Assembly: GCA_023484045.1 (NCBI GenBank)
Contig: JAMDAA010000035.1
Location: 10,966 to 74,965, forward strand
Direction of reading: 5' to 3'
DNA length: 64,000 nt
Source: Patescibacteria group bacterium
Lineage (GTDB): Bacteria; Patescibacteriota; Microgenomatia; Levybacterales; UBA12049
Shown: one piece after another, positions 628-52,470 of the stretch
Numbering within the stretch: the first letter of the stretch is position 1
How the letters are laid out: each line of letters begins with the position of its first letter
The notes under the pieces: generated by a model
The model's input: the letters and a program-made list of their open reading frames with translations, nothing else
The model's database searches: none
Told to the model about the DNA's origin: nothing
Position numbers and translations under genes: made by a program

Positions 628-1281
628 TCATACGCTTTTTTGTGCCGTAATCATCGGCGTTTTTATGTCGTTACTTTCAACCAATGTGTTTTCTTCGGCT
701 TCTTCGTTATAGACAGAATAGTAAAGTTTTACCAATTCTTCTTTTTCGAGTGTTTTTGCTTTGAGTCCGAGTCTTGCGAGTTGCGTATTCAGAGAGCTCG
801 ATTTTGTATCCAGGGCTTGTTTTGCCTGCTCCTTCGAATTTTTGTCTTTAATAACGCTCGCCGCGCCTTTCTCAAGCGGCGAATAAGGAATAACAATATA
901 GAATTTTTTATCCAGGACTTCGTTTACTTTTATCAATTCTTGTACGAAATCGTGATACAAACTTATTTGCAGCGAAAGTTTTTCGTTGGTCGATTTTTTA
1001 ACTTCTTCTTCGAGTAATTTTAAATAAGACGAGATATCGACTTTTTTGTTTCGGATCAACACTTGTATCGGAAAAGAAAGTGAATTCAGAAGCGACGCGT
1101 AAGAATATATTTTTGTATTTTGTTCTTCTCTTGACAAAAGCGAAAAGTTAGTCGCCTGAATTTCGGTGATCAAACACGCGTTTCCGCCTGTCAAAAACAC
1201 GATATTCCCCTCGATATCGACAATTTCAGTAAATTTTTGGGTAGACCCTGCTTTTATTTTGTTTGGTTTATCGATCGCCAT
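628..1281 (-). CDS. Hypothetical protein in the T4SS-like operon, between the PrgI-like and VirB4-like genes
   Basis: 217-aa ORF separated by 3 nt from both the upstream PrgI-like gene and the downstream VirB4-like start. Charged and coiled-coil rich. No family recognised. Confidence 0.4.
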   Translation of the reverse strand: MAIDKPNKIKAGSTQKFTEIVDIEGNIVFLTGGNACLITEIQATNFSLLSREEQNTKIYSYASLLNSLSFPIQVLIRNKKVDISSYLKLLEEEVKKSTNEKLSLQISLYHDFVQELIKVNEVLDKKFYIVIPYSPLEKGAASVIKDKNSKEQAKQALDTKSSSLNTQLARLGLKAKTLEKEELVKLYYSVYNEEAEENTLVESNDIKTPMITAQKSV

Positions 1282-1283
1282 AA

Positions 1284-2534
1284 TTAATTACCTGCCGCGC
1301 TTGAAAACAATGCTTTTCTTAACTCTTCACGTTCGTCGCTCGAAATTACCTCAAGCGGCGAGATTATTTCTCCCGACACGATAAGCTCAATGACGTCAAA
1401 CTTATTTTTCCCTTTTGGGTCTTCAAATGCGACAGTATACGTGCCGTTTAAAAGCGGCGTCGCTGACGCAAATTGGCCCAAGCCGTTTGTTTTAAACGCG
1501 CGAACAGGATTTCCTTCTTTATCCTTTACCTCGATTAAAATACCCGGCAATACGTTTCCTCTGGCGTCTTTAACGATTCCTGTTATTAGATTTGGAACAT
1601 CGGGCGTTATTGGCGCGCCGACAGTTTTGCCCATCGTTTTTGGAATCGTTCTCACGTTTTGAGTTTCGGCTTTGGGTTGTATTGCCCCCGGTGTAAACAC
1701 TTTTTGCTGTTGTGTTTCGATTGTTTTTTTAAGGTTCAATAATTGCTGTTCAAATTGATTTCGTTCTGTCATAACTTCGTTTAACTGCTGTTCTAGTTCC
1801 AATACTTTTTGATGTATGTTTGCGGTCACAGCTGGTTCTTTCTGAATCGCTTCCTCTTTTTTTGCCTCCTCGAGTTCTTTTGTGATCAACGCCGCTTCTT
1901 TTTGAAGCACCTCGTTTAAATTTTGTTGATTTTTAGGTTGGGAAATGATAGGTTTTTCTTCTTTTCTGGCGGAGCCAGATCCCGCTTCGCGGGACTTTTT
2001 TTCCTCATCTGTCAAAATTATGCGTGGCGGTCCGCCAGGTGGCTGAGAAACCGTTGGTTGGGCCATGCCACCACTAAGCATCGACGAAAGAGACTTAAAA
2101 AACATCATTTCCTTTTCGTCGTGTTTCTCTTTCGGTTTTTGTGGAAGATTTGCTAAATACATCTGAAGTTTGTTTTGCGATTGCGCTTGTGTTTGTTTTG
2201 CCGGGCCTTGAATTTTTTGAATTACGATCGGGACTAATAACTGCCCTCCGAGTTTTTGATAAACGTACTGATTGGGAGAAAAAAGCGCTCTTAAAAAATT
2301 GCCAAACATTATATCGAGCGGTCTTCCTTCGATCGGCAAAAAAGCCAAAGAAACACCAAGTAAAGCAGAAAACAAAGAAATGGAATATTTTATAAGCCAA
2401 AAAATGGGTGCGTAAAAAAATAAAAATGCCAAACCGACTCCACCGGCCAAAAACGCAAACTGCTTAACCGTCATGTCGCCGATCAATTTAAATTTAAATC
2501 CGGTAACATCCTGGGGTATTGGATGATTTTCCAT
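1284..2534 (-). CDS. PrgI-family (VirB3-like) membrane protein with a long C-terminal coiled-coil / beta-rich extension
   Basis: The N-terminus IPQDVTGFKFKLIGDMTVKQFAFLAGGVGLAFLFFY...GRPLDIMFGNFLRALFSPNQYVYQK matches the PrgI-family pattern (xPQxIxxEDKIxGPxTxKQFxYLAGG, two TM segments, then YxWxK). Residues 100-416 are an extension with a Q-rich coiled coil and a C-terminal beta-sandwich-like region. Confidence 0.55.
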   Translation of the reverse strand: MENHPIPQDVTGFKFKLIGDMTVKQFAFLAGGVGLAFLFFYAPIFWLIKYSISLFSALLGVSLAFLPIEGRPLDIMFGNFLRALFSPNQYVYQKLGGQLLVPIVIQKIQGPAKQTQAQSQNKLQMYLANLPQKPKEKHDEKEMMFFKSLSSMLSGGMAQPTVSQPPGGPPRIILTDEEKKSREAGSGSARKEEKPIISQPKNQQNLNEVLQKEAALITKELEEAKKEEAIQKEPAVTANIHQKVLELEQQLNEVMTERNQFEQQLLNLKKTIETQQQKVFTPGAIQPKAETQNVRTIPKTMGKTVGAPITPDVPNLITGIVKDARGNVLPGILIEVKDKEGNPVRAFKTNGLGQFASATPLLNGTYTVAFEDPKGKNKFDVIELIVSGEIISPLEVISSDEREELRKALFSSAAGN

Positions 2535-2542
2535 AATATTTT

Positions 2543-3016
2543 AAAATCCGAAATTCGAATATCGAAATTCGAAACAAATTCAAATTTTTAATTTTTAAAT
2601 ATCTAAATCTATTCTGACTTTCGAATTATCGATCCAAATATGTTCATTAATTCTGTTGCTTCTTTAATCAATACACCTCTTTCTTTTTCTAATTCAGGAT
2701 TATTGTTTATATCTATTAGCAATAGCCAATATCTACTTTCTTTTACTTCTTTCCTACAAATTTTAATCCTCAAAACAAAATCTTTTTTACTTAACGATTC
2801 ATTCGCCTCAATGTAATTTGCTCCAACCGACCCAGATGCTCTTATAAGTTGTATGCCGTCTTCGATGTTTCCGACTGTTTTAACTACTTTTTTAACAAAA
2901 ATTCTTACTCTCTTAGCAAAATTAAATGTCCTTTCCTCTAGGTCGTATTGTTTTGTATTTTTGATTTCTGTCATTTAGAGATTGTTTCGGGTTTCGGACT
3001 TCGTGCTTCGGATTTT
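2543..3016. other. Four-helix-bundle ORF cassette 1, bracketed by an imperfect inverted repeat (IR-L 2543-2577, IR-R 2983-3016)
   Basis: IR-L is aaaatccgaaattcgaatatcgaaattcgaaacaa. The reverse complement of IR-R is aaaatccgaagcacgaagtccgaaacccgaaacaa. Both are built of NNNCGAA heptamers and identical at both ends. The IRs start about 9 nt outside the ORF start codon and about 30 nt after the stop. Confidence 0.45.
2609..2974 (-). CDS. Four-helix-bundle protein (TIGR02436-type; 23S rRNA intervening-sequence protein / DGR Avd family)
   Basis: 121 aa with ...FAKRVRIFVKKV...LIRASGSVGANYIEANESLSKKDFVLRIKICRKEVKESRYWLLL, the characteristic IAEG/ANxxEA...S.KDF...ALGS/CRKE...E..YWL pattern. Confidence 0.75.
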   Translation of the reverse strand: MTEIKNTKQYDLEERTFNFAKRVRIFVKKVVKTVGNIEDGIQLIRASGSVGANYIEANESLSKKDFVLRIKICRKEVKESRYWLLLIDINNNPELEKERGVLIKEATELMNIFGSIIRKSE

Positions 3017-3180
3017 AATGCATAAAACTGTCTTAAATAAGATTATTATGTGAAAAAAATGTTTGCAAGATTATCAAAGTGGGTCAAACGTTACTATAAA
3101 TCAGCCTGCCCCGTGAAAATTGCTCTCTGAGCCGTATTCGAATAGAATAAAAAAGGCGAAAGAGGCTAGTTGTGAAAAAT

Positions 3181-3528
3181 TTATTTATTGAGGCAGACAT
3201 CAAAACCAAAACTTTTTATGCAACCTACCCCTGTAATATAACTTATAAAGCTTATAATAAAGTAGGAAAGAAGAATAATTACGAGTCCGATAATAGCGTA
3301 GGTTAATGTTTTTTTTGCGCCTTCGACTTGCTTTTGGTCGCCGCCAGATGTAATAAATTTAATACCCGAGATTATAACGATTATTACTGCAACGACTCCG
3401 GCCAAAATCAGCGCCCAGATCAAACCATTGTGAAATACGGCGGGAAGACATTTTAAAGTTGCAACTTTATCGCCTTTTTCAGTTGTTTCTAGACATTCAG
3501 GAACAAATGTTTCCCAGTCCACTCCCAT
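3181..3528 (-). CDS. TrbC/VirB2-like pilin-type small membrane protein (paralog 1)
   Basis: 115 aa with a hydrophobic helix, then GIKFITSGGDQKQVEGAKKTL, then a second hydrophobic helix. This two-TM plus conserved GG(D/N)xxKxxxAK loop is shared by all five paralogs. Confidence 0.5.
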   Translation of the reverse strand: MGVDWETFVPECLETTEKGDKVATLKCLPAVFHNGLIWALILAGVVAVIIVIISGIKFITSGGDQKQVEGAKKTLTYAIIGLVIILLSYFIISFISYITGVGCIKSFGFDVCLNK

Positions 3529-3573
3529 ATCTTAAGATTATCAAACAGCGTTAGAAAAGACAAGTTGAATTTA

Positions 3574-3981
3574 TTAGGAGCCGATCAGGGGAGGTATCGT
3601 AAGATTTGTAATATTAATTCCGAACAATTGCGCTACAAACGATATAATAAAGTAAGCCAATATCGCAATAATTAATCCTACAATCGCCGCCACAATCTGA
3701 TTTCTCGCTCCCTCTACTTTCGATTTATCTCCGCCGGAAGTAATCCATCTTATTCCGCCGATGATTAAGAAGAATACGGCGATAATAATCGCGATAATAA
3801 TAACAGCGATTATGACTCTACCGACCATCGGGCCGAAATCTGTCGGCGTAATCAAACATATTTGTCTGAGAATGTCATTTTTCTCTTTTTCTTGGCAAAT
3901 AGCAAGGTCTACGGCAAAAGCAGGATTTGCCAGTAATAGATACGAGATAAGTCCTGTTATCGGGGCGATAATTTTCCTCAT
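3574..3981 (-). CDS. TrbC/VirB2-like pilin-type protein (paralog 2). Start trimmed to MRKIIAPITG with a signal peptide
   Basis: Signal peptide ending ANPAFA, then the core FGPMVGRVIIAVIIIAIIIAVFFLIIGGIRWITSGGDKSKVEGARNQIVAAIVGLIIAILAYFIISFVA. This core is identical to paralog 3 over 68 aa. Confidence 0.5.
   Translation of the reverse strand: MRKIIAPITGLISYLLLANPAFAVDLAICQEKEKNDILRQICLITPTDFGPMVGRVIIAVIIIAIIIAVFFLIIGGIRWITSGGDKSKVEGARNQIVAAIVGLIIAILAYFIISFVAQLFGINITNLTIPPLIGS
3635..3838. repeat. 204-bp perfect direct repeat, copy A (inside pilin paralog 2); identical to 4213-4416
   Basis: Direct base-by-base comparison of the two regions. Identity begins at acaaacgatataataaagtaagcc and ends at ggccgaaa. 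Flanks diverge immediately on both sides. Confidence 0.9.
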
Positions 3982-4043
3982 TAGATTTATGATATGGAGA
4001 TTTTTGGAGTTTGTCAAGAGGAAAATATTTTAAATTTAACTGT

Positions 4044-4571
4044 TTACCGACATTCAAAAATTGGCGGGAGTAGTCCAGGATTAATTTGGGTACAGGTTCC
4101 CGAAGTGCAGGATCCAGATGTATTCCCGCCGCAAACAGCAGACGAAGAGCTACTTCCGCCTATTAAATTTGGAATCGTGAGATTCGTAATCGTTATTCCG
4201 AATAATCCGGCCACAAACGATATAATAAAGTAAGCCAATATCGCAATAATTAATCCTACAATCGCCGCCACAATCTGATTTCTCGCTCCCTCTACTTTCG
4301 ATTTATCTCCGCCGGAAGTAATCCATCTTATTCCGCCGATGATTAAGAAGAATACGGCGATAATAATCGCGATAATAATAACAGCGATTATGACTCTACC
4401 GACCATCGGGCCGAAACTTTGAGGATTAAAACCGCAAAGTATCTTATTAAATCCTGTGTTGCCTCCTGCTCCGGCCTGACTGCAAACGTCAACCGTTACG
4501 TCGGCAAAAGCGGGTTTTATAAAAAAGAGATAAAAAAACAGAGTACTAAAAAATGCAAAAATTTTCCTCAT
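4044..4571 (-). CDS. TrbC/VirB2-like pilin-type protein (paralog 3) with a Cys/Gly/Ser-rich C-terminal tail
   Basis: Same start and signal peptide as paralog 2 (MRKIFAFF...KPAFA) and the identical 68-aa core. It has a divergent N-terminal region and a C-terminal GGSSSSSAVCGGNTSGSCTSGTCTQ tail. Confidence 0.5.
   Translation of the reverse strand: MRKIFAFFSTLFFYLFFIKPAFADVTVDVCSQAGAGGNTGFNKILCGFNPQSFGPMVGRVIIAVIIIAIIIAVFFLIIGGIRWITSGGDKSKVEGARNQIVAAIVGLIIAILAYFIISFVAGLFGITITNLTIPNLIGGSSSSSAVCGGNTSGSCTSGTCTQINPGLLPPIFECR
4213..4416. repeat. 204-bp perfect direct repeat, copy B (inside pilin paralog 3)
   Basis: See copy A. The offset between copies is 578 bp. Confidence 0.9.
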
Positions 4572-4616
4572 TAAATTTATAGTAGCTGGTTTTTAAAAAT
4601 TGTCAAGTATTATGGT

Positions 4617-4943
4617 TTATTTAAGATTACCGACTAAATTAGTCCCGAATAAGCCGCCTATAAAACCGATTATAAAGAATGCGAGAAGAATAATTACAAG
4701 TCCGATAATCGCAAAAGTAATTTTTTGCCTTGCTTTTTGGATCGCTTCTTTGTTTCCTCCGGATGAACTCCACTGAATTCCGCCCCAAATTAAAAAAATA
4801 AGCGCGAGGATAATCGAAACTACAAAAAGAATAACTATTGTATTTGAAATAATTTTCTGCAGAGTTCCTTCTCCGGCAGTCGGCACATTACCTGGAACAT
4901 TGATTTCTCCAAGCTGAGGAATATTTAATGCAAAAAGTTTCAT
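4617..4943 (-). CDS. TrbC/VirB2-like pilin-type protein (paralog 4)
   Basis: 108 aa: ...IVILFVVSIILALIFLIWGGIQWSSSGGNKEAIQKARQKITFAIIGLVIILLAFFIIGFIGGLFG. Confidence 0.5.
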   Translation of the reverse strand: MKLFALNIPQLGEINVPGNVPTAGEGTLQKIISNTIVILFVVSIILALIFLIWGGIQWSSSGGNKEAIQKARQKITFAIIGLVIILLAFFIIGFIGGLFGTNLVGNLK

Positions 4944-4944
4944 T

Positions 4945-6369
4945 TTAAGGAATTTTTAAAGACCATCCGGGAATATGTAATATATTAACTCCGATAAGTT
5001 CCAATATAAATATCGAAAATATTATAAATAAAAGACCCACAATGGTAGATGTTAAGGTTTCCTTTGCCCCCTGAACTTTTTCTGCATTTCCCCGAGACGT
5101 CATTAGTTTATAACCGGAATAAATAATTAATAAGAGGGCAATTCCACCAGAGAGACTAAGAGTAATTCCAAAAATGCTTGCTATAAAGTCTTTTGGGTCA
5201 GTGCCAATGTCGATTCCTAAACCGGTGGAAACCTTTTCACATTTATCATTTACTAGTCCACCGGGCGCGCAAACTGGCGCGGGAGGAGGGAACGATTGTT
5301 GGTCAGATGATTTGTCGTAAAGTATACACCCATAACCCTGATAACACCATCCGCTAGCAGAGCAATCGACATATGATGTTGGATCAGTAAATTCAGTTTG
5401 ATTTTTGATGTTTTGACACGTATTTTCGAAGCCATTCCAAATAAATTTATTTGAACAAACAGGACAGCTTGTTAATAAATCTGGATTCTGTGTCGGTTTA
5501 GGGATTGGAGTGTTTCTCGGAATCGGTGTTGGAGTATTTGTGCCTGCTGGAGCGGGATTAACTTTAAAGTTTAATGGGCACCAGTTATTGTATTGTATGG
5601 ATTCGGAATCACTACCAATATAGACCTCATAAGTTCCTAATTGGGATGGTGCTGAAAATTCATGTGCTAAAGTATTATTAGCATCAAGCGTAACTGGTTC
5701 TGGATTTTTTGCGTCCCAACTTCTGCCAAAATATACAGACTTTTTTGTTATTCCGGGCCATGTTACTTTGTACGTTAAACCTGCATTAGGGGTTGTATCT
5801 ATTAAATCTTGCGATTGTCCACATTGTGGGTTAACATTGACCGATGGCTGCGGGGTTGGTGTTGATGATTGATTTTGATCAGACTTAATAATATTAATTA
5901 CATATTCGTCAACTTGATTAAAAATATCACCGCCCAATGTAATAACCTTTTTTTTATTAAGGATAATGTCATATCTTCCCAGAACAAGGTTTTTTAGATC
6001 ATTTTTATCATCAACTACGAACTCGTGTTTTGTCGCTCCAGTATCATGAGTATCAAAAACAAAATAAGGATGTAATCCTTTTTTCCGTGCAAATTGAGCG
6101 CAATCATTATTATATGAATTCGTAAGCGTACTTTCTAAAAATACATATTTATCAAGATTTTGAATTTCTATTACATAACAAGTTCTTGGCTGGAGATTAG
6201 AAATCTTGATTTTAAAAGGGGAACCTTCTTTGAAATTATTTTCAGACGTGGCCACAATTTTTTCTGGATTTTCAGAGTCAGAGTTAGCAAATACATTCTT
6301 GGCAAAAGTTATTAAGTAAGAAAGGATAAAAACTATTATTAATAATAAAAGAAGATTATTTTTTCTCAC
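4945..6369 (-). CDS. Large secreted protein (about 400-aa Cys-rich extracellular region) fused to a C-terminal TrbC/VirB2-like pilin module
   Basis: N-terminal signal peptide. The long extracellular region has about 16 Cys and PTP-rich linkers. The C-terminal 75 aa, GGIALLLIIYSGYKLMTSRGNAEKVQGAKETLTSTIVGLLFIIFSIFILELIG, has the same two-TM pilin-like architecture as the four short paralogs. Confidence 0.5.
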   Translation of the reverse strand: MRKNNLLLLLIIVFILSYLITFAKNVFANSDSENPEKIVATSENNFKEGSPFKIKISNLQPRTCYVIEIQNLDKYVFLESTLTNSYNNDCAQFARKKGLHPYFVFDTHDTGATKHEFVVDDKNDLKNLVLGRYDIILNKKKVITLGGDIFNQVDEYVINIIKSDQNQSSTPTPQPSVNVNPQCGQSQDLIDTTPNAGLTYKVTWPGITKKSVYFGRSWDAKNPEPVTLDANNTLAHEFSAPSQLGTYEVYIGSDSESIQYNNWCPLNFKVNPAPAGTNTPTPIPRNTPIPKPTQNPDLLTSCPVCSNKFIWNGFENTCQNIKNQTEFTDPTSYVDCSASGWCYQGYGCILYDKSSDQQSFPPPAPVCAPGGLVNDKCEKVSTGLGIDIGTDPKDFIASIFGITLSLSGGIALLLIIYSGYKLMTSRGNAEKVQGAKETLTSTIVGLLFIIFSIFILELIGVNILHIPGWSLKIP

Positions 6370-6551
6370 TTCTTCATCGTAGAATAGTTAAAAAAGTTTT
6401 GCAACTAAGGAGAAAATTTGAGACCGCGGCCTTTTATTGTTTGGAGATGGATTGGGTTATTGGGACCAGCTTCGATTTTTCTGCGGAGTCGGTACAGTCA
6501 TCGGTTTTCGGTTGTCAGTTTTCAGAAATTTGTTTGTCGGTTTTCGGTTAA

Positions 6552-6926
6552 TCAGTCAAATTTTTGCCAGGAGGATAAAAGTTTGTTAAGTTTTCTAGAG
6601 AGAATTTTATATTTTTCTATTAGCCATTCGCAATCTTCAGTTCGGATTCTGGTATAAGTTTTTGCCACAATTTTTATTTCTCTAATATGAGTTATAACTT
6701 CATCTGATGACCCAAGTGCCATTGACAAAAACCTGCAGAATTCCCGAGGCGACCTTTTCTTGCCAAAGCCTTCTGCTATTTGAGGAGCAATTTTTTCTCC
6801 AGCTTCGTTTGCTTGGAATTTAAGCCTTCTATGAGTTAGAGGAAGTAAGTTTGTAATTCTATATAATGGTTCAAGGAGATCAAGTGACAAATTATAAACT
6901 TCAAGGTCAGTAACATCTTTAATCAC
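6552..6926 (-). CDS. Four-helix-bundle protein (TIGR02436 / Avd / IVS-protein family), copy 2
   Basis: MIKDVTDLEVYNLSLDLLEPLYRITNLLP...IAPQIAEGFGKKRSPREFCRFLSMALGSSDEV. Flanked by heptamer-repeat tracts at 6470-6551 and 6930-7000 that are roughly inverted with respect to each other. Confidence 0.75.
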   Translation of the reverse strand: MIKDVTDLEVYNLSLDLLEPLYRITNLLPLTHRRLKFQANEAGEKIAPQIAEGFGKKRSPREFCRFLSMALGSSDEVITHIREIKIVAKTYTRIRTEDCEWLIEKYKILSRKLNKLLSSWQKFD

Positions 6927-7000
6927 TCTCTTAGTCTATCAGATAAACAGATAACTGATAAACTTTTGTCCGAGAACAGAAAACCGGGAACTGATAACAT

Positions 7001-8377
7001 TTATGCAGTGAATTTCATTCCTCTCCCCTTAATTGTCTCCAGATGCTTTGGGTTATTTGGGTCTGTTTCTATTTTCTTCCGCAATCTAAAAATTAACTGA
7101 TCAAGCGCCTGGTCTGTTACTCCGGCCGTTGTTTGAGTATCTTTCCAGACCGAATTTATTATCTCTTCTCTCTCTATAATTTTTCCCTGATTTTCGATTA
7201 AATATTTTAAAAGCCGAAATTCAGCAGAAGTTAAATTCTCTGAAAGAACAAGTTCTCCTTTTTTAATCTCTCTTGCGTCTTGGTCGTAATGTATTTGTTC
7301 GTGGGCGGTTTCTTTTAATGTTTTAATATATTCTTCAAAAATCGGAATTGCGATCTGTTGATTTTTTAACATCCCGACTTTTTCAAGATATATTATGTTT
7401 TCTTTTTCGATATTAAATACCGTGCTTGAAATATTAGATATTAAATATTCTTGTTCGGCCGGAATAAACGAAGACCAGATTTCAAAAAGCCCTTTTTGAA
7501 CCGGTTTTTGTTCGAGCAAAAATTCGATAAGTTTCTTAGCGTTTGGCTGTAAGTCCTTATCTGCTAATATACTTTCCGCACAAAGTCTCGTCAGTTTTCC
7601 GTGTCCTCCGGTTAAATCGATAATTTTGTCCAAAAGTTTTATGTCGATATCTTTTCCCGATATTTTCTGAAGATATGAAATTCTAAAATCTGTTCCCGGT
7701 TTATCATAAAGCGAAAGATAAATAATATTTCCGGCGATAAACTCGTAAAAGTCTGCAAAAAGCGCCGGTTCGATTAAGTCTTCAAGCGGCCGGGGAAGCG
7801 AAAAAATAACAGAAAATCTGTACTTGGCGATGTTTCTAAGGGTTTTAAGATTTATAAAAAACTGATCGGAAACTTTTGAAATATAGTCTTCGAATCTGTC
7901 GAAAAGAAAAACAACGGCTAGTTCCTTTTCGATCGACAAAAAATTAACAGCTTCTTTTAGCCCCTGAAAAAGAACGATTTCATCATTTTGAATCATATGG
8001 GATTTGAATATTTTATGGAGTGCTTCGTGTTCTGCATTCAGCTTCCGGTCGCGGAGCGAATCGGCCAAAGACAAAAACATAAATTTTAGAACGTCAAAAA
8101 GAGATCGGTTTTTGACTTCGGAAAAATTCATGTAGACAAAGTGAAGCCATTTTTGATCTTCGCCTGAATGTTTAATGCGGACATTCCGGTTATAGGCAAG
8201 AAGTCTTAATAGATTTGATCTTCCTGTTCCGGGAAGGCTTACGATCTGACACGATTTCCCTCCTTTAATAAAACCCAGAATTTTTTCGATTTCTGCAAAA
8301 CGAGAGTCGTCGGGGTATAAAGATTCAAAATGAAGACCTTCCATTGCTTCATTGTTAAATTGCTTGATTGTTTTCAT
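7001..8377 (-). CDS. P-loop NTPase fused to a C-terminal OmpR/PhoB-type winged-helix DNA-binding domain (putative regulator)
   Basis: N-terminal SLPGTGRSNLLRLL P-loop-like motif followed by an ATPase-like region of about 300 aa. The C-terminal FRLLKYLIENQGKIIEREEIINSVW...ALDQLIFRLRKKIE...IETIKGRGMKF is a typical trans_reg_C winged helix. Confidence 0.6.
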   Translation of the reverse strand: MKTIKQFNNEAMEGLHFESLYPDDSRFAEIEKILGFIKGGKSCQIVSLPGTGRSNLLRLLAYNRNVRIKHSGEDQKWLHFVYMNFSEVKNRSLFDVLKFMFLSLADSLRDRKLNAEHEALHKIFKSHMIQNDEIVLFQGLKEAVNFLSIEKELAVVFLFDRFEDYISKVSDQFFINLKTLRNIAKYRFSVIFSLPRPLEDLIEPALFADFYEFIAGNIIYLSLYDKPGTDFRISYLQKISGKDIDIKLLDKIIDLTGGHGKLTRLCAESILADKDLQPNAKKLIEFLLEQKPVQKGLFEIWSSFIPAEQEYLISNISSTVFNIEKENIIYLEKVGMLKNQQIAIPIFEEYIKTLKETAHEQIHYDQDAREIKKGELVLSENLTSAEFRLLKYLIENQGKIIEREEIINSVWKDTQTTAGVTDQALDQLIFRLRKKIETDPNNPKHLETIKGRGMKFTA

Positions 8378-8434
8378 TGTTTGATATTTTAGTTAAAAGT
8401 TCAAAGTTAAAAATTAAAAATTACAACTCAAAAT

Positions 8435-8806
8435 TCAAAGTTTATTTCTTCCTTTTAACGTAGAAATACTTGAACCAAGGATTTTTACAAGTTCATCTGT
8501 TTCTTTTAAGAGTGCTTCAATTTCTGCTATTAATTTGGGATCAAGATCTTTTGATAAAGCCAGCCAAAATTTAGTTTCGTTCCCGCTTTTTAAAGCGTGA
8601 TTTAAGAAATTAACAAAATCTCTTTTTGAACTAGCCGCTTGTGCTTCGATAATATTAGCCCCGATGGATGTCGCTGCTCTTAAAAGCTGATCGCTTATAA
8701 CCCATGCAGATCTTTTATTGGGGAACTTATCAACCAGATTAATTATTCTTCTGGCCAAAATAAACGCCCGGCTTATTAACTGTTTTTTAAAATCTTTGTT
8801 ATTCAT
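8435..8806 (-). CDS. Four-helix-bundle protein (TIGR02436 / Avd / IVS-protein family), copy 3
   Basis: ...RAATSIGANIIEAQAASSKRDFVNFLNHALKSGNETKFWLAL... Flanked by inverted heptamer-repeat tracts at about 8390-8440 and 8807-8860, both containing ttaaaagttcaaagt. Confidence 0.75.
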   Translation of the reverse strand: MNNKDFKKQLISRAFILARRIINLVDKFPNKRSAWVISDQLLRAATSIGANIIEAQAASSKRDFVNFLNHALKSGNETKFWLALSKDLDPKLIAEIEALLKETDELVKILGSSISTLKGRNKL

Positions 8807-8938
8807 AACTTTTAATTTTAAACTTCAACTTTGAACTTTGCACTTTGAACTTTTAATTTATTTTATAAGTATATCGTTAGCTTCTTGTAAAGTAAATATC
8901 AAGCTCCTTTACCTCTTTTTCTATAAACTGCGGGTGCT

Positions 8939-11575
8939 ATGAAAGAGGTTTTTAGGCCAACGCCCGAATTGACAAACAAGGCTCCGGTGCAATATTCTAG
9001 AACTGGAGATATTTTTATGGGGGAAAACAGTGGAGAAAAAAATCCTTCTGGACAGAACAATGCAGCTGAACAAGTCAAGACCCCAACCTCTCAGCAGCTT
9101 ATTGCTGGACTAGAATCTATGCACCCGGAAAATTGGGGGTTAAGAGAATCATTTATTCGAGGAAGAAAACAACTAGGTCCGGAATCGATTGTGGATCGAT
9201 TGGATCCGGTTGCTGCCTCAATTCTATCGATCGATCCCACAGGATTTCATGAAGATCCGATTGTAAATGCGATCAATTATTTACAGCTAGAAGCCAGAAA
9301 GGGGAGAGTCGATTTATCTACTTTAAGGGAAATCCGCGAACCGATTTTAAAAGATTTTCTCAGTCCTGATCGAAAAATAAGTTCTGCGGAGGCGACTGAG
9401 TTTTTAAGTAGGACAAGAGACATATTAACCTTGGCGCAAGGAATAAAAGAGCTGGAAGAAGAGGAAGAAAAAAAGGCCGAGGAGGGGAGAAAAAAAGCAG
9501 AAAGAGTAACTGAAGAAGAGAAACTTAAGGATTCAGAAGTGATCGAAAGACTATTTCAGGAAAACATGTTGCGGATTGAACAGCGTGAAATGACTACTCA
9601 AAGCCAGGCGTGGTTTGAAGAAACAACCATGATTAATAAGTTAATAAACTTGGCAGAAGATCTTGGAGATAAAGACCCGGGAGGTAAATTACGTCAACGG
9701 TTAGTCGCACAAAAAAACGTGCGCTTTGCCCTTCACGACATCAATTTCTATGCGCGGGCAGGAATCAAGGAAAATTTTCCCCACATGAGTGAGGCAGCAA
9801 ACCAAATCAATACAGAACATTTTTATTTGGTACACGCCTTGCCTGGCGTAGCGCCAGTTATGCGTATTTTTGAAGAAGAGTATTCTAAGGCAATCCAACA
9901 AACAGGAAGAATTACAGATATCGAGGTCCAAAAAGTCCGTGCCGATGTAGAAAAAAGGTTTAATACGGTAGCTACGATGTACGGTTTAACAGAGCCTCAG
10001 GCGAAAACAGCTTTTAGACTCGGAGAAAACCTATTTAATACTAAAACTCGTTTAGCAGTTTATATATCGCGTGGCGAGATTCCGCAAAATTTGGAGTATC
10101 TACGCACAGATCCTTGGAGTGAATTTGTGCGTTTATATTCTGCTTATGAATTTGAAGTTGGCAAATGGAGATCAATACCAGAAAGCGCAAAAGACTTCGC
10201 CCGATTTTTAGGTAAAACAGCCTTCGACAAAATTCTCAGTGTCCCCGATCACGATTCTTCAATATGGAGAACTTTTGGAATAATCGAAGGATTAAATCAA
10301 AAAGGATATTACAAGTGGGGTCTTTTTATGAGGTTAAAATTTGCTTATAAAGACAAAAAAGCCTTATACGGCGAGGATGGAAAATCGGGCGAAGATCGAA
10401 AAAAAATGGAGAAAAGAGCGGATGAATTAAGGGATGAAATTGTCCAGGATTTTTTGAAAGGAGGAGCATCAAGAGAAGAAGCGGACAAAATGGGAGACAG
10501 AAGAGTCGCGGGATACTGGAAAGACATGCAAAAAGAAATAGATACTAAAACGCATATGGGCAAAACTGGAGAAACCGGGGAGCCTCAACTTAAACAAGTT
10601 TTTAGAGAAGATATTCTTAAGGAAATTAATCATTATATGCCCGAAGAATTAGCGCGGGCATATTGGGGAGATGAGCAATTAGCGAATGTAATTAAAGAAT
10701 GCGGAGGGGCGGAAGTGTTCGGTGAATTATGCAACGAATTAACCCGGATTCGAGAAGAGGAATTAAGAGATGAAAAAGAAAGAGTAAAAGGTCTTAGCGC
10801 TGAGGATCGTGAAAAAAGACAAGACAATTATCAAAATTTTGACAGTAAGGTTACTCATCTTAAGCCAGAGCTTCGTAATCTTTATGCAAGGCTTCATGAT
10901 TTTTTTGAAGAAATAGATGGAAAAGATGGAAAAGGAAGAACAAGAATACAGATTCTCACAGATGAAGATGCAATTATTGGCGGAAGAAAAAATCCTTTGT
11001 ATGACAAAATTTGGTCTGAAAAAGACATGCCATTTGAAGAATTAGAAGATACTATAACACCTGGCTTTGTCGGCCATAAAACATTGGGAAGAAATTATAA
11101 TGATCATGCTGCAGCATTTGGTACCTTAGAAATACTTGAAGAGCTCGCAAAAAATCCAACAAATTTGGAAAATTTACAAAAACTCCACGGAACATTTTCA
11201 AAGTGGCTCGGTTTGGAAACTGAAGAAAAATTAATCGCCCAAATCGCAGAGTCCGTATTAAAATATCATGCCCAAGATGAAGCTTTTAGGCATTTAATGC
11301 CTGGAATTTCAAATCTTCTTGGCTGGGTCATAAGAGGTGGTTCTTCACCTGCGCGAAGAAGATTGGGGAAAAAAGGAGCACAATGGGATTCAGGAACATT
11401 AAATGATCAAATAAATGAAATGCAGGCAAAAGGGTTATTGAGCAAGGAAAAGGCAGATGAACTACGGCAAAAATTGCACATTGTATTTGGTTTTAGGATT
11501 CTACCCTTAGTTCAATTATTTATACTTACTATGGTTTTTGAGATTATCTACAGCCAGGGTCCCCAGAAGAAATAA
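8939..11575 (+). CDS. Large (878 aa) highly charged hypothetical protein with a single C-terminal hydrophobic segment
   Basis: Long intact ORF, rich in E/K/R with coiled-coil-like stretches. The C-terminus is ...FGFRILPLVQLFILTMVFEIIYSQ. No recognised catalytic motif. Confidence 0.5.
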   Translation: MKEVFRPTPELTNKAPVQYSRTGDIFMGENSGEKNPSGQNNAAEQVKTPTSQQLIAGLESMHPENWGLRESFIRGRKQLGPESIVDRLDPVAASILSIDPTGFHEDPIVNAINYLQLEARKGRVDLSTLREIREPILKDFLSPDRKISSAEATEFLSRTRDILTLAQGIKELEEEEEKKAEEGRKKAERVTEEEKLKDSEVIERLFQENMLRIEQREMTTQSQAWFEETTMINKLINLAEDLGDKDPGGKLRQRLVAQKNVRFALHDINFYARAGIKENFPHMSEAANQINTEHFYLVHALPGVAPVMRIFEEEYSKAIQQTGRITDIEVQKVRADVEKRFNTVATMYGLTEPQAKTAFRLGENLFNTKTRLAVYISRGEIPQNLEYLRTDPWSEFVRLYSAYEFEVGKWRSIPESAKDFARFLGKTAFDKILSVPDHDSSIWRTFGIIEGLNQKGYYKWGLFMRLKFAYKDKKALYGEDGKSGEDRKKMEKRADELRDEIVQDFLKGGASREEADKMGDRRVAGYWKDMQKEIDTKTHMGKTGETGEPQLKQVFREDILKEINHYMPEELARAYWGDEQLANVIKECGGAEVFGELCNELTRIREEELRDEKERVKGLSAEDREKRQDNYQNFDSKVTHLKPELRNLYARLHDFFEEIDGKDGKGRTRIQILTDEDAIIGGRKNPLYDKIWSEKDMPFEELEDTITPGFVGHKTLGRNYNDHAAAFGTLEILEELAKNPTNLENLQKLHGTFSKWLGLETEEKLIAQIAESVLKYHAQDEAFRHLMPGISNLLGWVIRGGSSPARRRLGKKGAQWDSGTLNDQINEMQAKGLLSKEKADELRQKLHIVFGFRILPLVQLFILTMVFEIIYSQGPQKK

Positions 11576-11605
11576 GTTATTAATTATAATTTTAGCTAAA
11601 AACTC

Positions 11606-13291
11606 CTATTGAAACCGAAATATTTGTCGGGCAGCACCCCACATGCCTGCTTTTTGAGTTGGGTTACCCGGTAAAGGAGTTCGAGACGCAGCAACTGCTT
11701 TCCCAGAACCACTAATTGCTCCTGTTCCAACCCCGAGCGCAGTAACAATCGGAGAAAGATCAACTTTAGGCGGCTTTAAGACTTGTTGCATATAAGTTAC
11801 TACACGTGGTGTAAGAAGTATAAATCCCATTCCGATTAAAGAACCGATTGGACCTACTTCTCCTCCAGTTGGATTTCCGATAAGCGGAGGTACAAACAAT
11901 GAACTATTTTTGTTAAAAATATTCATCATCGTGTTTCCTAATAATAGCATTGCAATTGTGGTAGGAAATGCTAATAGGTAAGAAAGCATGTAACGTAGCC
12001 AGCTTACAAACCCTCTTCCTCCGACAGCCGGGATAATCCCGGCTACGATCCAAAAAGGCGAGAGGGTAATACCGATTAGTATGGCGACATAAGCCATAAC
12101 AAGTTTAAACCAAAGTCTAAAAAGGGCCCAAAGGATCGCGATAAAAACAATAAGGAATACTAGCAAATAAGGGAGACCAAGTCTTAATGTAGATTGAGCG
12201 AGTCCATAAGAAACTAAACCCGCAGAGATACCGACCCCGGCTGAAATTAAAGGGGTTCCTATCATGCTCGATACTTTTGCCCCAGTTCCAATTCCGATAG
12301 ATGTACTAGCTATGTCGATTAACCAATTAAAAACATTATTTTTTAAACCACTTAATCCAGCAAATCCCTTCAGAAAATTAATAAATTCTGAGGGGCCCAA
12401 AAATGATATGACATTTTGATTTATGTCAAAAATCTTCCCCACAACCGCCGTAGCTGAACTGGCAATATTATTTGCCATTCCGGAAATATTTCCAATATTA
12501 GTTACACCTGGTCCATTACTAGTTCCACCAACAGCTTCTAAAACATTTCTCCCTTGTAAAATTGTTGGATTTAAATTGCTTACATCTATAGCTAAATTAG
12601 CGTTCGAGAATACCCCAAAAGTTAAATACATAAGTATCCACATAAGATCAATCAAAAACCCTGCAATAGCGAAGGAGAATGTAACCATGATGACACCGAT
12701 AATGATTCGCGGGATCTGGTTTTGTATAGTCATTACGGTTCGGGGATCAATTTTAACCCTCAACATTATCATTAATCCTATTATGATAAATATAAGTATA
12801 AAGACGAAATAAACCATATTTCGAAATATAACCCATAATTGCATTAACGGTTTTATGCTATCGAGACCAGTCGATGCATATACGGGTTTTGCGAGGCCAA
12901 AATTACGCGCCAAATAATTAAAATAATCACTTGTATGTATTGGTGGGGTATAAAGCGTTGCGATCATGTTCCCCATAACTCCGATCGCGCCTCCGCCGTT
13001 TTCGACAAAGCCGATTTTCCCAGTTTTTTGATCCACGCCTAAACACTTTTGATTTGGATTTACCGGATCGACACCTGTTAACTGACAAGTCATGGCAGAC
13101 ATAACTTCGATCATCGCATTTTGTGTCCAGGTATGAAGATTTTGGGGAATATCAGGATTAGTGTTAGGAGCAGCATATTGATTTTGTTGGTGTGTTTGTG
13201 ATTGGGCATATGACGGCGTGATAGAAAATAGAAGATAGAAAATAGAAGATAGAAAGAAAAGAGCGACGATATGGACAGTTTGTTTAAACAT
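11606..13291 (-). CDS. Polytopic membrane protein with signal peptide, possibly VirB6/TrbL-like
   Basis: 561 aa. Signal peptide, then a soluble domain of about 110 aa, then at least seven hydrophobic helices and a Gly-rich C-terminus. The architecture resembles VirB6/TrbL. The assignment is by context and topology only. Confidence 0.35.
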   Translation of the reverse strand: MFKQTVHIVALFFLSSIFYLLFSITPSYAQSQTHQQNQYAAPNTNPDIPQNLHTWTQNAMIEVMSAMTCQLTGVDPVNPNQKCLGVDQKTGKIGFVENGGGAIGVMGNMIATLYTPPIHTSDYFNYLARNFGLAKPVYASTGLDSIKPLMQLWVIFRNMVYFVFILIFIIIGLMIMLRVKIDPRTVMTIQNQIPRIIIGVIMVTFSFAIAGFLIDLMWILMYLTFGVFSNANLAIDVSNLNPTILQGRNVLEAVGGTSNGPGVTNIGNISGMANNIASSATAVVGKIFDINQNVISFLGPSEFINFLKGFAGLSGLKNNVFNWLIDIASTSIGIGTGAKVSSMIGTPLISAGVGISAGLVSYGLAQSTLRLGLPYLLVFLIVFIAILWALFRLWFKLVMAYVAILIGITLSPFWIVAGIIPAVGGRGFVSWLRYMLSYLLAFPTTIAMLLLGNTMMNIFNKNSSLFVPPLIGNPTGGEVGPIGSLIGMGFILLTPRVVTYMQQVLKPPKVDLSPIVTALGVGTGAISGSGKAVAASRTPLPGNPTQKAGMWGAARQIFRFQ

Positions 13292-13529
13292 TATCTAGTC
13301 GTCTCGCTAAGCGAGATCTTGCTCCACAAGACTAATATTAGTTTGATCTATTTATAAAATCTTGTCAAGCAGTCCTTCGCTCTAAGGCTTTGCGATTTGA
13401 AGCACGCTTTCGCGAATCTATGCGGACTTGTCCGCCGAAGGTCGCCCAGAATAATTTAATTTATCTTTGTTTTTAACTCTAACTTTCATGGGTGAATGTC
13501 GCCGTCGCTAAAGCTATGGCGACCGAAGG

Positions 13530-13616
13530 CGGAGGGAGGGAGATTCGAACTCCCGGTAAAGTTTCCTCTACACACGATTTCCAATCGTGCTCCTTAAACC
13601 ACTCAGACATCCCTCC
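13530..13616 (-). tRNA. tRNA-Ser (anticodon GGA), long variable arm
   Basis: Reverse complement folds as GGAGGGATGTCTGAGTGGTTTAAGGAGCACGATTGGAAATCGTGTGTAGAGGAAACTTTACCGGGAGTTCGAATCTCCCTCCCTCCG. Anticodon loop TTGGAAA. CCA not encoded. Confidence 0.85.
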
Positions 13617-13624
13617 TAGATTTA

Positions 13625-13852
13625 TTATAGTCCTAGTCTATTAAATAGAATTTCTTTTTGTTGACCTTTTTTCTTCAGTTCTAATTCTCTTTTCCTAGTT
13701 AAAGTGTAATTGCCGTAAGCTTCATAATAGACCAAATCAAAAGGTTTGTAAGATTTTGTTGAACGAACTCTTCCAGAGTTATGCTCGTTAAATCTATTTA
13801 CTAAATTTTTTGTTGATCCAATATAGTGCCAATTTTTATTTTTTGCTTTTGA
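13625..13852 (-). pseudogene. GIY-YIG nuclease domain fragment (UPF0213-type) lacking an N-terminal strand and start codon
   Basis: Own translation: KNKNWHYIGSTKNLVNRFNEHNSGRVRSTKSYKPFDLVYYEAYGNYTLTRKRELELKKKGQQKEILFNRLGL*. It aligns to the intact paralogs at 54177 and 54853 but has no ATG and misses about 20 N-terminal residues. Confidence 0.5.
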
Positions 13853-13877
13853 TTAAATATAGATAATACACAAACGA

Positions 13878-14393
13878 CTATTTTTTTGCTTTCAACCTAC
13901 GGTTGATCGCCCGCAGGGCGACTTGCCAGACTTGTTTATCTGATTTATAAGTCAGTCTTTTTTCGACTTCATGAATATCGAGCCATTCTACGTTTTCCAT
14001 TTCGTGATCGTGATTTTTCGTATCGCCGGACACGTACTGCATTAAAAAATAATACACGGTTTTTTTTATTTTCTCTTGCCCTGAGCCTGTCGAAGGGTTC
14101 CCCTCAAATTGATACCAATACGTAACCGCCGGTAACTCTTTTTCTATTTTCCCCAAAATTCCTGTTTCTTCCTCGACTTCCCGAACCGCGGCTTCTTCCT
14201 TTGTCTCTTTTTTCTCTTGCCCTGAGCCTGTCGAAGGGCCGATTAGTCCTTTCGGAAAAACCCAGCCGTGATGTTGTGAATGTTGCGCTACAAGAATCAA
14301 AATTTTGTTATTTTCTCTTTTATGGACTATTCCTCCGGCTGAAAATTCAAATTTCATAATTTTTTGCGTCCTCGAGAGGAATCGAACCTCCAA
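13878..14393 (-). CDS. NUDIX hydrolase carrying two in-frame copies of a 23-bp repeat element
   Basis: Nudix box GX5EX7REVEEETGI is present. Two insertions, at 14075-14097 and 14215-14237, encode (G/N)PSTGSGQEK. Confidence 0.8.
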   Translation of the reverse strand: MEVRFLSRTQKIMKFEFSAGGIVHKRENNKILILVAQHSQHHGWVFPKGLIGPSTGSGQEKKETKEEAAVREVEEETGILGKIEKELPAVTYWYQFEGNPSTGSGQEKIKKTVYYFLMQYVSGDTKNHDHEMENVEWLDIHEVEKRLTYKSDKQVWQVALRAINRRLKAKK

Positions 14394-36364: not shown

Positions 36365-37495
36365 ATGAGTTACCTCTTGCCTCTTATAAAAAATGCTGAT
36401 GTTAAAGGTAAAACTGTTCTTCTTCGATTAGATTTGGATGTTCCGATCGTACAACTCAAAATTCAAAATTCAAAATCAGAAATTAAAATAGAGGACAAAG
36501 AGCGCCTGGAATCGGGATTAGCGACGATTAGGTATTTAACTAAACACGGGGCGGAAATAATTATTGCTGGACATTTGGGTCGTCCAGAAGGAAAGGATGA
36601 AAATTTCTCCCTACGACCCGTAGCAAAGTGGTTTGCGAGAAAAGTAGGATATAGTCAAATTCATCCTCGTAAATTTGGAATTTTTAACGGTTGGCGTCTT
36701 ACAGAAAGAATTTCGATTCTTGAGAATCTGAGGTTTTTTAAAGGAGAGGAGAGAGACGATAAACAGTTTTCAAAAGAATTGGCATCTCTTGCAGATGTTT
36801 ATATCAACGATGCGTTTGCAGTGAGTCATCGGACTCACGCTTCGATCGTCGGAGTTCCAGCGATTTTGCCCCATTTTGCGGGAATTCATTTTGCAGAAGA
36901 AGTAGAAATTTTAGGAAATGTATTAAAGCGCCCAAAAAGGCCGCTTATTGTAATAATCGGAGGAGCAAAACTCGAAACAAAACTACCACTCGTCGAAAAA
37001 ATGCACCGTTTTGCCGATTACGTCCTGATCGGAGGAAAGATCGCACGGGAAACACGAGTTTTGTTAAAGGTGGCCCATGAAAAAATTTATCCTCAAGCTG
37101 GCAGGAAAAGATCGGTTCTTTTGATCGCTGATTCAAATTTTAACGGTACTGACATTTCCGAAAAGAGTGTTGAAAATTTTTGCCAGATAGTAGTTTTAGC
37201 AAAAACGATTATTTGGAATGGACCGATGGGAATTATCAAGAATTCAGAATTCTCGCCTCGCGGCGAAGCGGGCAGAATTCAGAATTCAGAAGATACGGAA
37301 AAAGGGACGAGGAAATTGGCAAAAGCGATTACAGAGAGCAAAGCATATTCGATCGTCGGCGGCGGAGATACATTAGCTTATCTTAAAAAAATTGATCTAC
37401 TAAATAAATTCGACTTTTGTTCGATGGGCGGGGGAGCGATGCTTTCATTTTTAGCCGGCGAAAAAATGCCGGGGATTGAGGTACTCGAAAAATAA
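36365..37495 (+). CDS. pgk: Phosphoglycerate kinase with two in-frame low-complexity insertions
   Basis: ADVKGKTVLLRLDLDVP, IIAGHLGRPEGK and GGGDTLAYL motifs. Insertions at about 36455-36492 (VQLKIQNSKSEIKIE) and 37237-37290 (KNSEFSPRGEAGRIQNSE). Confidence 0.85.
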   Translation: MSYLLPLIKNADVKGKTVLLRLDLDVPIVQLKIQNSKSEIKIEDKERLESGLATIRYLTKHGAEIIIAGHLGRPEGKDENFSLRPVAKWFARKVGYSQIHPRKFGIFNGWRLTERISILENLRFFKGEERDDKQFSKELASLADVYINDAFAVSHRTHASIVGVPAILPHFAGIHFAEEVEILGNVLKRPKRPLIVIIGGAKLETKLPLVEKMHRFADYVLIGGKIARETRVLLKVAHEKIYPQAGRKRSVLLIADSNFNGTDISEKSVENFCQIVVLAKTIIWNGPMGIIKNSEFSPRGEAGRIQNSEDTEKGTRKLAKAITESKAYSIVGGGDTLAYLKKIDLLNKFDFCSMGGGAMLSFLAGEKMPGIEVLEK

Positions 37496-52418: not shown

Positions 52419-52470
52419 CTTCGAATCCAAGCGGACGCACAAGTAAATCTCAAATCTCAAAAATCAAATC

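Follow-up and report, generated by a model that had tools for sequence, protein, structure and literature searches.

Within a 64-kb stretch of DNA from a Patescibacteria group bacterium (contig JAMDAA010000035.1; this whole stretch is ‘the window’ in what follows) we describe three small cassettes, each consisting of one open reading frame (ORF) for a protein of the 23S rRNA intervening-sequence (IVS) family, with inverted arrays of a heptamer particular to that cassette on either side. Gene and repeats form one unit, which is found far outside rRNA and in many phyla, and in which protein subfamily and heptamer are paired. We propose, giving the idea roughly even chances, that the cassette is a widespread small insertion unit, corresponding in mRNA to the intervening sequences of 23S rRNA that carry an ORF.

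The three ORFs, of 121-124 amino acids, lie where an earlier note on this DNA had placed them, all on the minus strand; the cassettes and the host genes next to them are as follows.

2609-2974, minus strand: cassette 1 ORF, 121 amino acids; PF05635 family, ‘c1’ subfamily
2975-3018, minus strand: cassette 1 start-side arm, in sense orientation AAAATCC GAAGCAC GAAGTCC GAAACCC GAAACAA; ends 8 nt before the ATG
2541-2608, minus strand: cassette 1 stop-side arm, with a heptamer array at 2543-2577 (plus-strand unit AAATTCG)
2578-2608: AT-rich period-7 filler of cassette 1, between the heptamer array and the stop of the ORF
6552-6926, minus strand: cassette 2 ORF, 124 amino acids, GTG start; PF05635 family, ‘c2’ subfamily
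6927-6998, minus strand: cassette 2 start-side arm, in sense orientation GTTATCAG TTCCCGG TTTTCTG TTCTCGG ... TTATCAG TTATCTG
6495-6551, minus strand: cassette 2 stop-side arm, on the plus strand CGGTTTT CGGTTGT CAGTTTT ...
8435-8806, minus strand: cassette 3 ORF, 123 amino acids; PF05635 family, ‘c3’ subfamily
8807-8860, minus strand: cassette 3 start-side arm, in sense orientation AAAGTTC and AAAGTGC units; abuts the ATG
8391-8434, minus strand: cassette 3 stop-side arm, with its outer end near the regulator ATG
7001-8377, minus strand: regulator gene between cassettes 2 and 3, 458 amino acids, with a C-terminal winged helix-turn-helix (Trans_reg_C)
1284-2534, minus strand: PrgI-family host gene, with cassette 1 within its 5' leader

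Each arm of the window cassettes holds about 4-7 copies of its heptamer, and Tandem Repeats Finder returned a period of 7 in all six flanks. The paired segments are 2541-2584 with 2975-3018 in copy 1 (44 nt, 75% complementary), 6495-6516 with 6972-6993 in copy 2 (22 nt, 77%) and 8393-8442 with 8807-8856 in copy 3 (50 nt, 78%). The earlier note quoted the arm sequences correctly; its statement that the arms follow right after the stop codon needs amending for copy 1, where the stop-side arm begins 31 nt past it. The outer end of each cassette sits 0-13 nt from a start or stop codon of the host: 6 nt ahead of the ATG (2534) of the PrgI-like gene for cassette 1, directly after the regulator stop codon (7001-7003) for the start-side arm of cassette 2, and 13 nt ahead of the regulator ATG (8377) for cassette 3.

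As had been proposed, these are free-standing, IVS-like units in the spacers and leaders of a protein-coding locus, with copy 1 in the leader of the PrgI-like gene and copies 2 and 3 flanking the regulator; an Rfam scan of the whole window returned only tRNAs and a tmRNA, and no rRNA gene. By Pfam the locus resembles a type IV secretion system (T4SS), with a PrgI-family gene, five T4SS_pilin genes and the Trans_reg_C regulator; the ten ORFs scanned within 628-14393 gave matches to PrgI, T4SS_pilin, Trans_reg_C and NUDIX, with two ORFs unmatched, and no reverse transcriptase was found amongst these ten, the rest of the window not having been scanned for one. A hidden Markov model (HMM) built from the three proteins found no further cassette ORF in the 64 kb. 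Promoter- and terminator-like sites are not enriched between 2300 and 9200 (25 against 21.9 and 5 against 5.8 expected from shuffles), and the arms thus have no evident promoter or intrinsic-terminator character; one promoter-like site lies on the minus strand at 8896-8868, just outside the start-side arm of cassette 3, with the cassette just downstream of it.

To our knowledge, the protein family described by PF05635 and TIGR02436 has had no function assigned to it since its discovery in rRNA intervening sequences in the 1990s; it has two crystal structures and is very widely annotated. All three ORFs belong to it, as the earlier note had recognised: Pfam PF05635 (23S_rRNA_IVP; gathering cutoff 33.8) matches copies 1, 2 and 3 with 40.4, 56.7 and 82.7 bits, and TIGR02436 (‘four helix bundle protein’; cutoff 24) with 60.8, 55.4 and 100.6 bits (E-values 1e-16, 6e-15 and 5e-29). 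The AlphaFold2 model of copy 3 predicts four helices in a bundle (predicted local distance difference test, pLDDT, 93.8), for which Foldseek finds BT_0352 (2RLD) as the best match, with a template-modelling (TM) score of 0.80-0.87, followed by XCC0516 (2GSC); both entries were deposited with five chains, and copy 3 also matches 2RLD in sequence (E 9e-19). Ranking after these IVS proteins are the Avd chains of the diversity-generating retroelement (DGR) ribonucleoprotein (TM 0.7-0.8, 18% identity; the Avd-containing structures in the comparison were 8UB7, 8UB8, 8UBE and 4DWL). The family motif is given as GxxRxxxSxxxNxxE (PMC3936711); in our reading of the alignment copies 1 and 3 carry RxxxSxxxNxxE, with no leading G at the motif spacing, and copy 2 retains only the final E.

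No catalytic or transposase domain was found in the cassette ORFs with Pfam, PADLOC or PHROGs, the latter two giving nothing beyond a marginal match to RmrT (E 0.0055), and a scan with the copy-3 profile found no relatives on viral contigs; we dropped the notions of a phage origin, of phage genes and of a defence system on these grounds. Homologues of copy 3 with 79-88% amino-acid identity are spread over many lineages within the CPR (candidate phyla radiation), and the ORF of cassette 1 is 63-66% identical to cassette ORFs of the Levybacteria loci L001 and L095. Pairs of copy-3 homologues show dN of 0.07-0.19, saturated dS and dN/dS of about 0.05-0.07; judged by these substitution rates the cassette protein is under strong purifying selection, from which it follows that the protein is functional and the divergences old. 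The arm motif persists between these homologues despite the saturation of dS.

The conservation of the whole architecture, inverted repeat, ORF, inverted repeat, was asserted in the earlier note and goes far beyond chance, both against control genes and amongst homologues. When the 90 nt ahead of each start codon are locally aligned to the reverse-complemented 90 nt that follow the stop, copies 3, 1 and 2 score 36, 34 and 26, and 44 other genes of the window have a median of 15 and a maximum of 26. A stringent search for arrays in the window found four at lag 7, against none in dinucleotide-type shuffles, and none at lags 5, 6 or 8-12. The arms of copy 2 are weak when taken alone (a score equal to that of the best control, and a fold z-score of -0.8), and we accept them only because its 57 homologues share them. 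Nine further heptamer arrays lie elsewhere in the window, mostly within genes; none of these nine forms an inverted pair around a gene, and there is no ORF-less pair in the 64 kb. Control genes with high scores proved to be ordinary host genes sandwiched between two elements, and were rejected as alternative cargo for that reason.

Beyond the window, copy-3-type cassettes were surveyed in one genome per species with a profile made from copy-3-type sequences only (80 loci), and copy-2-type cassettes by a metagenome scan with copy 2 (65 loci); the sampled cassettes are akin to each other, which makes the p-values given below optimistic. For the 93 copy-3-type genes the inverted-repeat score has a median of 31 (14 in 255 control genes of the same loci), and 77% of them lie above the control 95th percentile; the self-identity of their flanks at lag 7 is 0.66 and 0.69 (0.49 and 0.50 in controls), falling to about 0.5 at lags 6 and 8. 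For the 57 copy-2-type genes the median is 33 against 13, with 88% above the 95th percentile. Across 460 kb of loci we count 242 arrays of period 7, against 13, 19, 3 and 2 at periods 5, 6, 8 and 9, and 124 of the 242 lie within 100 nt of the end of a four-helix-bundle ORF.

Besides CPR lineages, at least ten further groups carry the cassettes, the hosts of copy-3-type cassettes being many CPR lineages, Omnitrophota, Nitrospiraceae, Zixibacteria, Aminicenantes, Caldatribacteriota, Thermodesulfobacteriota, Planctomycetes, Ignavibacteria and one Micrarchaeia metagenome-assembled genome. This last cassette (L028 2141-2521, on a Micrarchaeia-binned contig) has 60-nt AAAGTTn arms and a protein 75% identical to the CPR copies, and reflects either inter-domain transfer or a binning error. 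Amongst cultured organisms, Nostoc, Planktothrix, Gloeocapsa, Chlorohelix and Monoglobus share the same build; on plasmid pNPUN02 of Nostoc punctiforme PCC 73102 (gene NPUN_RS35560) and in N. flagelliforme the arms are perfect, (AATTCGC)4 on the upstream side and (GCGAATT)4 on the downstream side, and pNPUN01 of N. punctiforme has GTCGGAG and CTCCGAC arms. Four of these genera carry the cassette in defence or restriction-modification operons: between drmD and pglX in Planktothrix, between DUF1156 and Swt1-HEPN genes in Gloeocapsa and Chlorohelix, and, with a decayed ORF, between hsdS and hsdR in Monoglobus. The loci from cultured carriers (L163 1120-1575, L164 1105-1690, L166-L170 and L172) include cassettes on plasmids.

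Comparison across these loci indicates that the heptamer follows the protein subfamily and not the host. Copy-3-type proteins go with AAAGTTn or AAAGCGn units, copy-1-type proteins with TCC[G/T]AAA, copy-2-type proteins with GTTnTCnG (in the 57 homologous cassettes) and distant copy-2-like proteins with GACAGAA or GACGGAA, with CTAGTnG and other units in L095; between the window and L001, copy-1-type units differ in every unit, by G/T upstream and C/A downstream. Several such heptamer/protein pairs can be found within a few kb of one genome, as in the window, L001 and L095. Arms have a median of 4.4-4.9 units, mostly 3-6, and were identical in ten near-identical population samples, with no variation in unit copy number, so that they are not hypervariable at that scale.

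The cassettes occupy operon spacers or 5' leaders in the sense orientation: 163 of 177 pairs of cassette and neighbour are co-oriented (92%, against 81% of other adjacent genes; p = 0.001), and the median spacers between cassette and neighbour are 47.5 and 61 nt, so that the arms fill them. Translated neighbours at ten diverse loci revealed no common target operon. Using the regulator gene (7001-8377) to find orthologous loci with and without cassettes, we obtained L094, the closest available relative, in which the regulator is 82% identical and the synteny of pilin, PrgI and TraC genes is the same; none of its three sites is filled, and its spacers align to the window sequence on both sides of each cassette. 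In L095 (Levybacteria), where the regulator is 63% identical, the leaders of the regulator and of PrgI are likewise occupied, by cassettes of other subfamilies (24-34% identity) and with other heptamers, and a third cassette lies between pilin genes; one L095 cassette protein also matches PF22296 (bAvd). Upstream of the PrgI-like gene all three genomes have a conserved leader element, TTGACC(C/T)A(C/T)TTTGATAATCTTGCA, at about 3060-3090 in the window, 11835-11870 in L094 and about 11165-11190 in L095, and in the window and L095 the cassette lies between this element and the start codon.

Elsewhere, ATP-synthase operons carry the same cassette subfamily; in those of Levybacteria, three cassettes lie between consecutive atp genes. 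In L010, from a strain related to L001, an ORF-less 110-nt CAGTAAA/TTTACTG hairpin takes the place of cassette A of L001 and fills precisely the gap between the stop codon upstream and the start codon that follows (the 440-555 region of L010); L001 itself has ORF-less hairpins at 811-878 and 6100-6208, in other spacers of the ATP-synthase operon, with the heptamer family of cassette A. Downstream, over cassettes B and C, L010 and L001 do not differ, while upstream their identity drops to about 90%, a sign of a recombination breakpoint inside the operon. The 118 arrays away from four-helix-bundle genes divide into 44 ORF-less arrays in inverted pairs, 45 solo intergenic arrays and 29 solo arrays in long ORFs. 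On the strength of these locus comparisons, cassettes are gained, lost and replaced at spacer sites. The marks by which a transposon with terminal inverted repeats, or a miniature inverted-repeat transposable element (MITE), is recognised are present here in the form of the repeats themselves and of presence/absence at orthologous sites; as to a target-site duplication, the junctions cannot be fixed to the base, the filled and empty genomes being too diverged.

As the earlier note anticipated, when the sense strand is folded (minimum free energy and centroid), each of the three cassettes has its arms paired and its ORF looped out, with z-scores of -3.8, -0.8 and -2.3 for copies 1, 2 and 3. Saying this, a number of observations count against an IVS-type element built around an RNA hairpin. 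Copy 2 folds no better than its shuffles; around 20% of arm positions are mismatched, mostly by transversion-type mismatches (226 in the copy-3 set and 171 in the copy-2 set, above the wobble and mirror classes); and G:U and A:C mismatches pool to 98:86 in the copy-3 set (p = 0.42). Sliding the arms by 7 or 14 nt hardly reduces their pairing, which would suit iterated binding sites no less than a stem: from 0.80 on the best diagonal, complementarity goes to 0.69-0.73 for a slide of 7, to 0.61-0.67 for one of 14 and to 0.35-0.55 out of phase. Treponema saccharophilum provides an exception in which both arrays are direct, not inverted, and the solo arrays inside genes are left unexplained by a hairpin model.

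For the copy-2 set, G:U and A:C mismatches pool to 74:49 (p = 0.03, a generous value as the sequences are related); cassettes with an excess of sense wobbles outnumber those with a deficit by 33:18 in the copy-3 set and 21:7 in the copy-2 set; and register-specific complementarity at held-out variable positions is 0.46 against 0.39 (copy-3) and 0.47 against 0.26 (copy-2), with about half of the variable heptamer positions unpaired in the best register. These figures weakly suggest pairing of the arms in the sense transcript, and mirror-image arrays of binding sites would be equally compatible with them. Conservation thus applies to an inverted array of one degenerate heptamer, which pairs in several registers, and not to a unique stem; the selection on a long RNA stem for which the earlier note had argued is not established in the face of the mismatches, of a G:U excess that is absent in the copy-3 set and modest in the copy-2 set, and of the tolerance of sliding.

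Intervening sequences containing an ORF of the S23p (PF05635) type are found in the 23S rRNA of Leptospira, Coxiella burnetii and Xanthomonas. The cassettes share with them the protein family, the placing of the ORF within stem-forming terminal inverted repeats and a size of about 430-530 nt, and some free-standing cassettes use GACAGAA/GACGGAA arms; these are at L138-L140, L144, L145 and L161, with the units about 40 nt upstream of position 1501. In the Coxiella IVS, three GACAGAT heptamers and one GACAGAA abut the S23p start codon, and a 28-bp terminal stem is cut by RNase III (PMC4990558); it is this same build, along with the shared GACAGAA-type unit, that leads us to see the cassettes as IVS-type elements living in mRNAs. 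They differ in lying in spacers and leaders of protein-coding operons rather than in an rRNA gene, and in an ORF under strong purifying selection, where that of Coxiella is reported to be decaying. ORFs for the intervening-sequence protein (IVP) are also present in CPR rRNA insertions (PMC11270868).

We put forward, as the reading that we favour at roughly even chances, a model for the IVS-type element in an mRNA. The cassette would be co-transcribed with its host operon, such that the two arms could ‘zip’ into a long, imperfect duplex from which the ORF is looped out; by analogy with rRNA intervening sequences, RNase III may then cut this duplex, and the unit would be tolerated wherever breakage of the RNA chain is harmless, namely between cistrons, in leaders and at the tips of rRNA helices. 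We suggest that the protein probably has its own element's heptamer arrays as binding sites and serves that element's maintenance or spread, by analogy with the solved relatives of five chains and with the fold relative Avd, a component of the DGR ribonucleoprotein.

The arms might instead act at the level of DNA, as iterated end-binding sites of a mobile element for which the protein is the end-binding factor and a host or trans-acting enzyme does the cutting and joining; ORF-less hairpins and solo arrays would then be non-autonomous derivatives, as REPINs (doublets of repetitive extragenic palindromes) are to RAYTs (their associated tyrosine transposases) and MITEs to insertion sequences. 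Presence or absence at a site and replacement of one element by another at the same site point this way, as do a heptamer that tracks the protein subfamily, multi-register pairing with free variable positions every 7 nt, the 44 ORF-less arrays in inverted pairs (those in L001 sharing the heptamer family of cassette A), and arms of about five units beside solved relatives with five chains per entry. REPIN-RAYT systems and MITEs offer further likeness in a gene flanked by cognate inverted repeats, dispersed ORF-less doublets and several families per genome, and L001 has a gene plus ORF-less doublets of one heptamer family, a pattern seen at that locus, whereas the window has no ORF-less pair. 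RAYTs are HUH (Y1) transposases; the cassette protein, by contrast, is a four-helix bundle with no recognisable catalytic domain, its arms are tandem arrays and not a single palindrome, and a genome holds many gene-carrying copies instead of a single one. Neisseria has, in its Correia (NEMIS) elements, small insertions with inverted repeats that are transcribed as part of mRNAs, where RNase III processes their hairpins; they have no ORF, unique terminal inverted repeats, a TA target duplication and no heptamer arrays. We think a DNA-level element possible but unlikely, given that no catalytic domain, transposase, PADLOC or PHROG match is in evidence, no target-site duplication can be resolved between diverged filled and empty sites, and the excess of sense co-orientation is not predicted by a pure DNA mechanism; moreover, none was present on the viral contigs scanned, the arms are identical in the ten population samples, so that recent activity is not visible, and the saturated dS between cassettes in different contexts makes any moves old.

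A further reading takes the hairpins to be domesticated operon punctuation, host cis-elements for mRNA stability, translational coupling or termination, with the four-helix-bundle protein a trans-acting regulator that by chance is encoded inside some of them. ORF-less heptamer hairpins between operon genes would suit this, as would strong purifying selection on the protein and three published cases: the hairpin proposed between hupS and hupL (PMC2670836), the paired five-heptamer sites of Geobacter (PMC2700814) and the TAACTGA arrays that end 1 nt before start codons (PMC4679880). We nevertheless hold it to be improbable when several heptamer/protein pairs can sit within a few kb of one genome, the closest relative lacks cassettes at all three sites, their siting is not conserved from one relative to another, and no promoter- or terminator-like enrichment is seen in 2300-9200. 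Two remaining readings are effectively excluded. Slippage-prone, AT-rich microsatellites in coincidentally inverted arrangement are very improbable: heptameric repeats are said to be over-represented in many bacteria (as cited in PMC4692102) and nine further arrays occur in the window, to which extent the earlier note's own caution about generic intergenic microsatellites applies, but control genes lack inverted flank pairs and 124 of the 242 period-7 arrays lie near four-helix-bundle ORFs, for which reasons we do not take the solo arrays as a refutation; the motif is, besides, kept with the protein subfamily despite saturated dS, and G+C-rich versions exist in Nostoc. Least credible of all are DGR remnants or trans-acting Avd accessory genes. 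The Avd likeness raised earlier stands at the level of the four-helix-bundle fold, where Avd chains come second in the search, and one L095 cassette protein does match bAvd; it fails at 18% identity and at the level of HMM membership, with no match to bAvd (PF22296) at E <= 0.01 for the three window proteins, no Avd found by PDB profile search, no reverse-transcriptase partner amongst the neighbours scanned, and cassettes sitting inside unrelated operons in dozens of genomes. The readings set out here are not mutually exclusive.

Heptamer arrays have a literature of their own. An STRR hairpin (for short tandemly repeated repetitive sequence) between hupS and hupL was proposed to stabilise the transcript or to couple translation (PMC2670836); GGGAATC arrays of Xanthomonas are paired and convergent, in a paper which cites heptameric repeats as over-represented in many bacterial genomes (PMC4692102); TAACTGA arrays of Beggiatoaceae and cyanobacteria adjoin start codons, with some inside ORFs (PMC4679880); and the paired Geobacter sites, at proB/proA and moaA/mosC, were read as regulator-binding sites (PMC2700814). 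Like cassette arms, STRR-type repeats are tandem 7-nt units, typically 3-6 of them, mostly intergenic between co-oriented genes, often in convergent, hairpin-capable pairs and sometimes within ORFs or adjoining start codons, and the Geobacter unit TTCAGAA equals that of the AATTCAG arrays in the window; the difference is that cassette arrays bracket, and co-vary with, one gene family. The proposals made in these papers are G-quadruplexes, IHF/HU sites and translational control, and the terms ‘four helix bundle’ and ‘S23’ are absent from all four. IVP genes have been reported between cas genes with the flanking repeats uncommented (PMC3936711), and in full-text searches, which covered few subscription journals, we found nothing that ties IVS-protein genes to flanking heptamer arrays outside rRNA, in keeping with the earlier note, to which no description of the arrangement was known. 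The Nostoc cassettes show that at least some STRR-type cyanobacterial heptamer arrays are cassette arms.

The solo arrays of the window deserve mention in their own right. In-frame arrays lie at 36446-36488, 37263-37292, 38845-38881, 46993-47024, 56163-56207, 57291-57337 and 58058-58115, and the array-bearing genes are those for phosphoglycerate kinase (two arrays), GAPDH, cobalamin adenosyltransferase, a MurD-like ligase and tRNA-guanine transglycosylase. The arrays of the MurD-like ligase are perfect (AATTCAG x4.7 and AATTTCC x4.6), that of the transglycosylase resembles a copy-3-type arm, CTACAAC included, and those of GAPDH and the transglycosylase fall where these proteins have loop insertions in comparison with solved homologues. 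All in-ORF arrays of the window are A-rich on the sense strand; 21 more were found in 17 other loci, making 29 with the window's eight. An intergenic (AAATCTC)x5 at 52441-52484 lies just after a tRNA-Ile gene and next to an opposite-strand pyrophosphatase-like ORF, with no inverted partner within 700 nt. That tRNA-Ile (52347-52419, called by ARAGORN) has the anticodon UAU, unusual for bacteria, and ARAGORN also calls a minus-strand tRNA-Met at 54555-54624, which falls below the gathering score in Rfam. In the host locus, two adjacent T4SS-pilin paralogues (3574-4017 and 4044-4571) are identical over about 200 nt (3620-3850 and 4200-4430) in the transmembrane C-terminal part, which suggests recent duplication or gene conversion.

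Two practical consequences follow for annotation. Cassettes interrupt ATP-synthase, T4SS-like, CRISPR-cas, restriction-modification and other defence operons, and may be mistaken for components of those systems; in-frame heptamer arrays, for their part, alter conserved enzymes.

Finally, these observations join two loose ends, a protein family without a function and the bacterial heptamer repeats that have been explained in various ways. We offer, as a tentative and rather doubtful extension, that IVS proteins bind tandem heptamer arrays in a sequence-specific manner, with perhaps a single pentamer subunit to each unit, and that protein and arrays together make up a pan-bacterial class of self-perpetuating elements without an enzyme. 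Were this true, the class would comprise gene-bearing cassettes, ORF-less hairpins and in-frame solo arrays; it would explain the STRR-type repeats, a puzzle since 1990, and would give PF05635 a function. The questions posed by the protein and by the repeats can now be approached by experiment in tractable organisms, such as Nostoc punctiforme.

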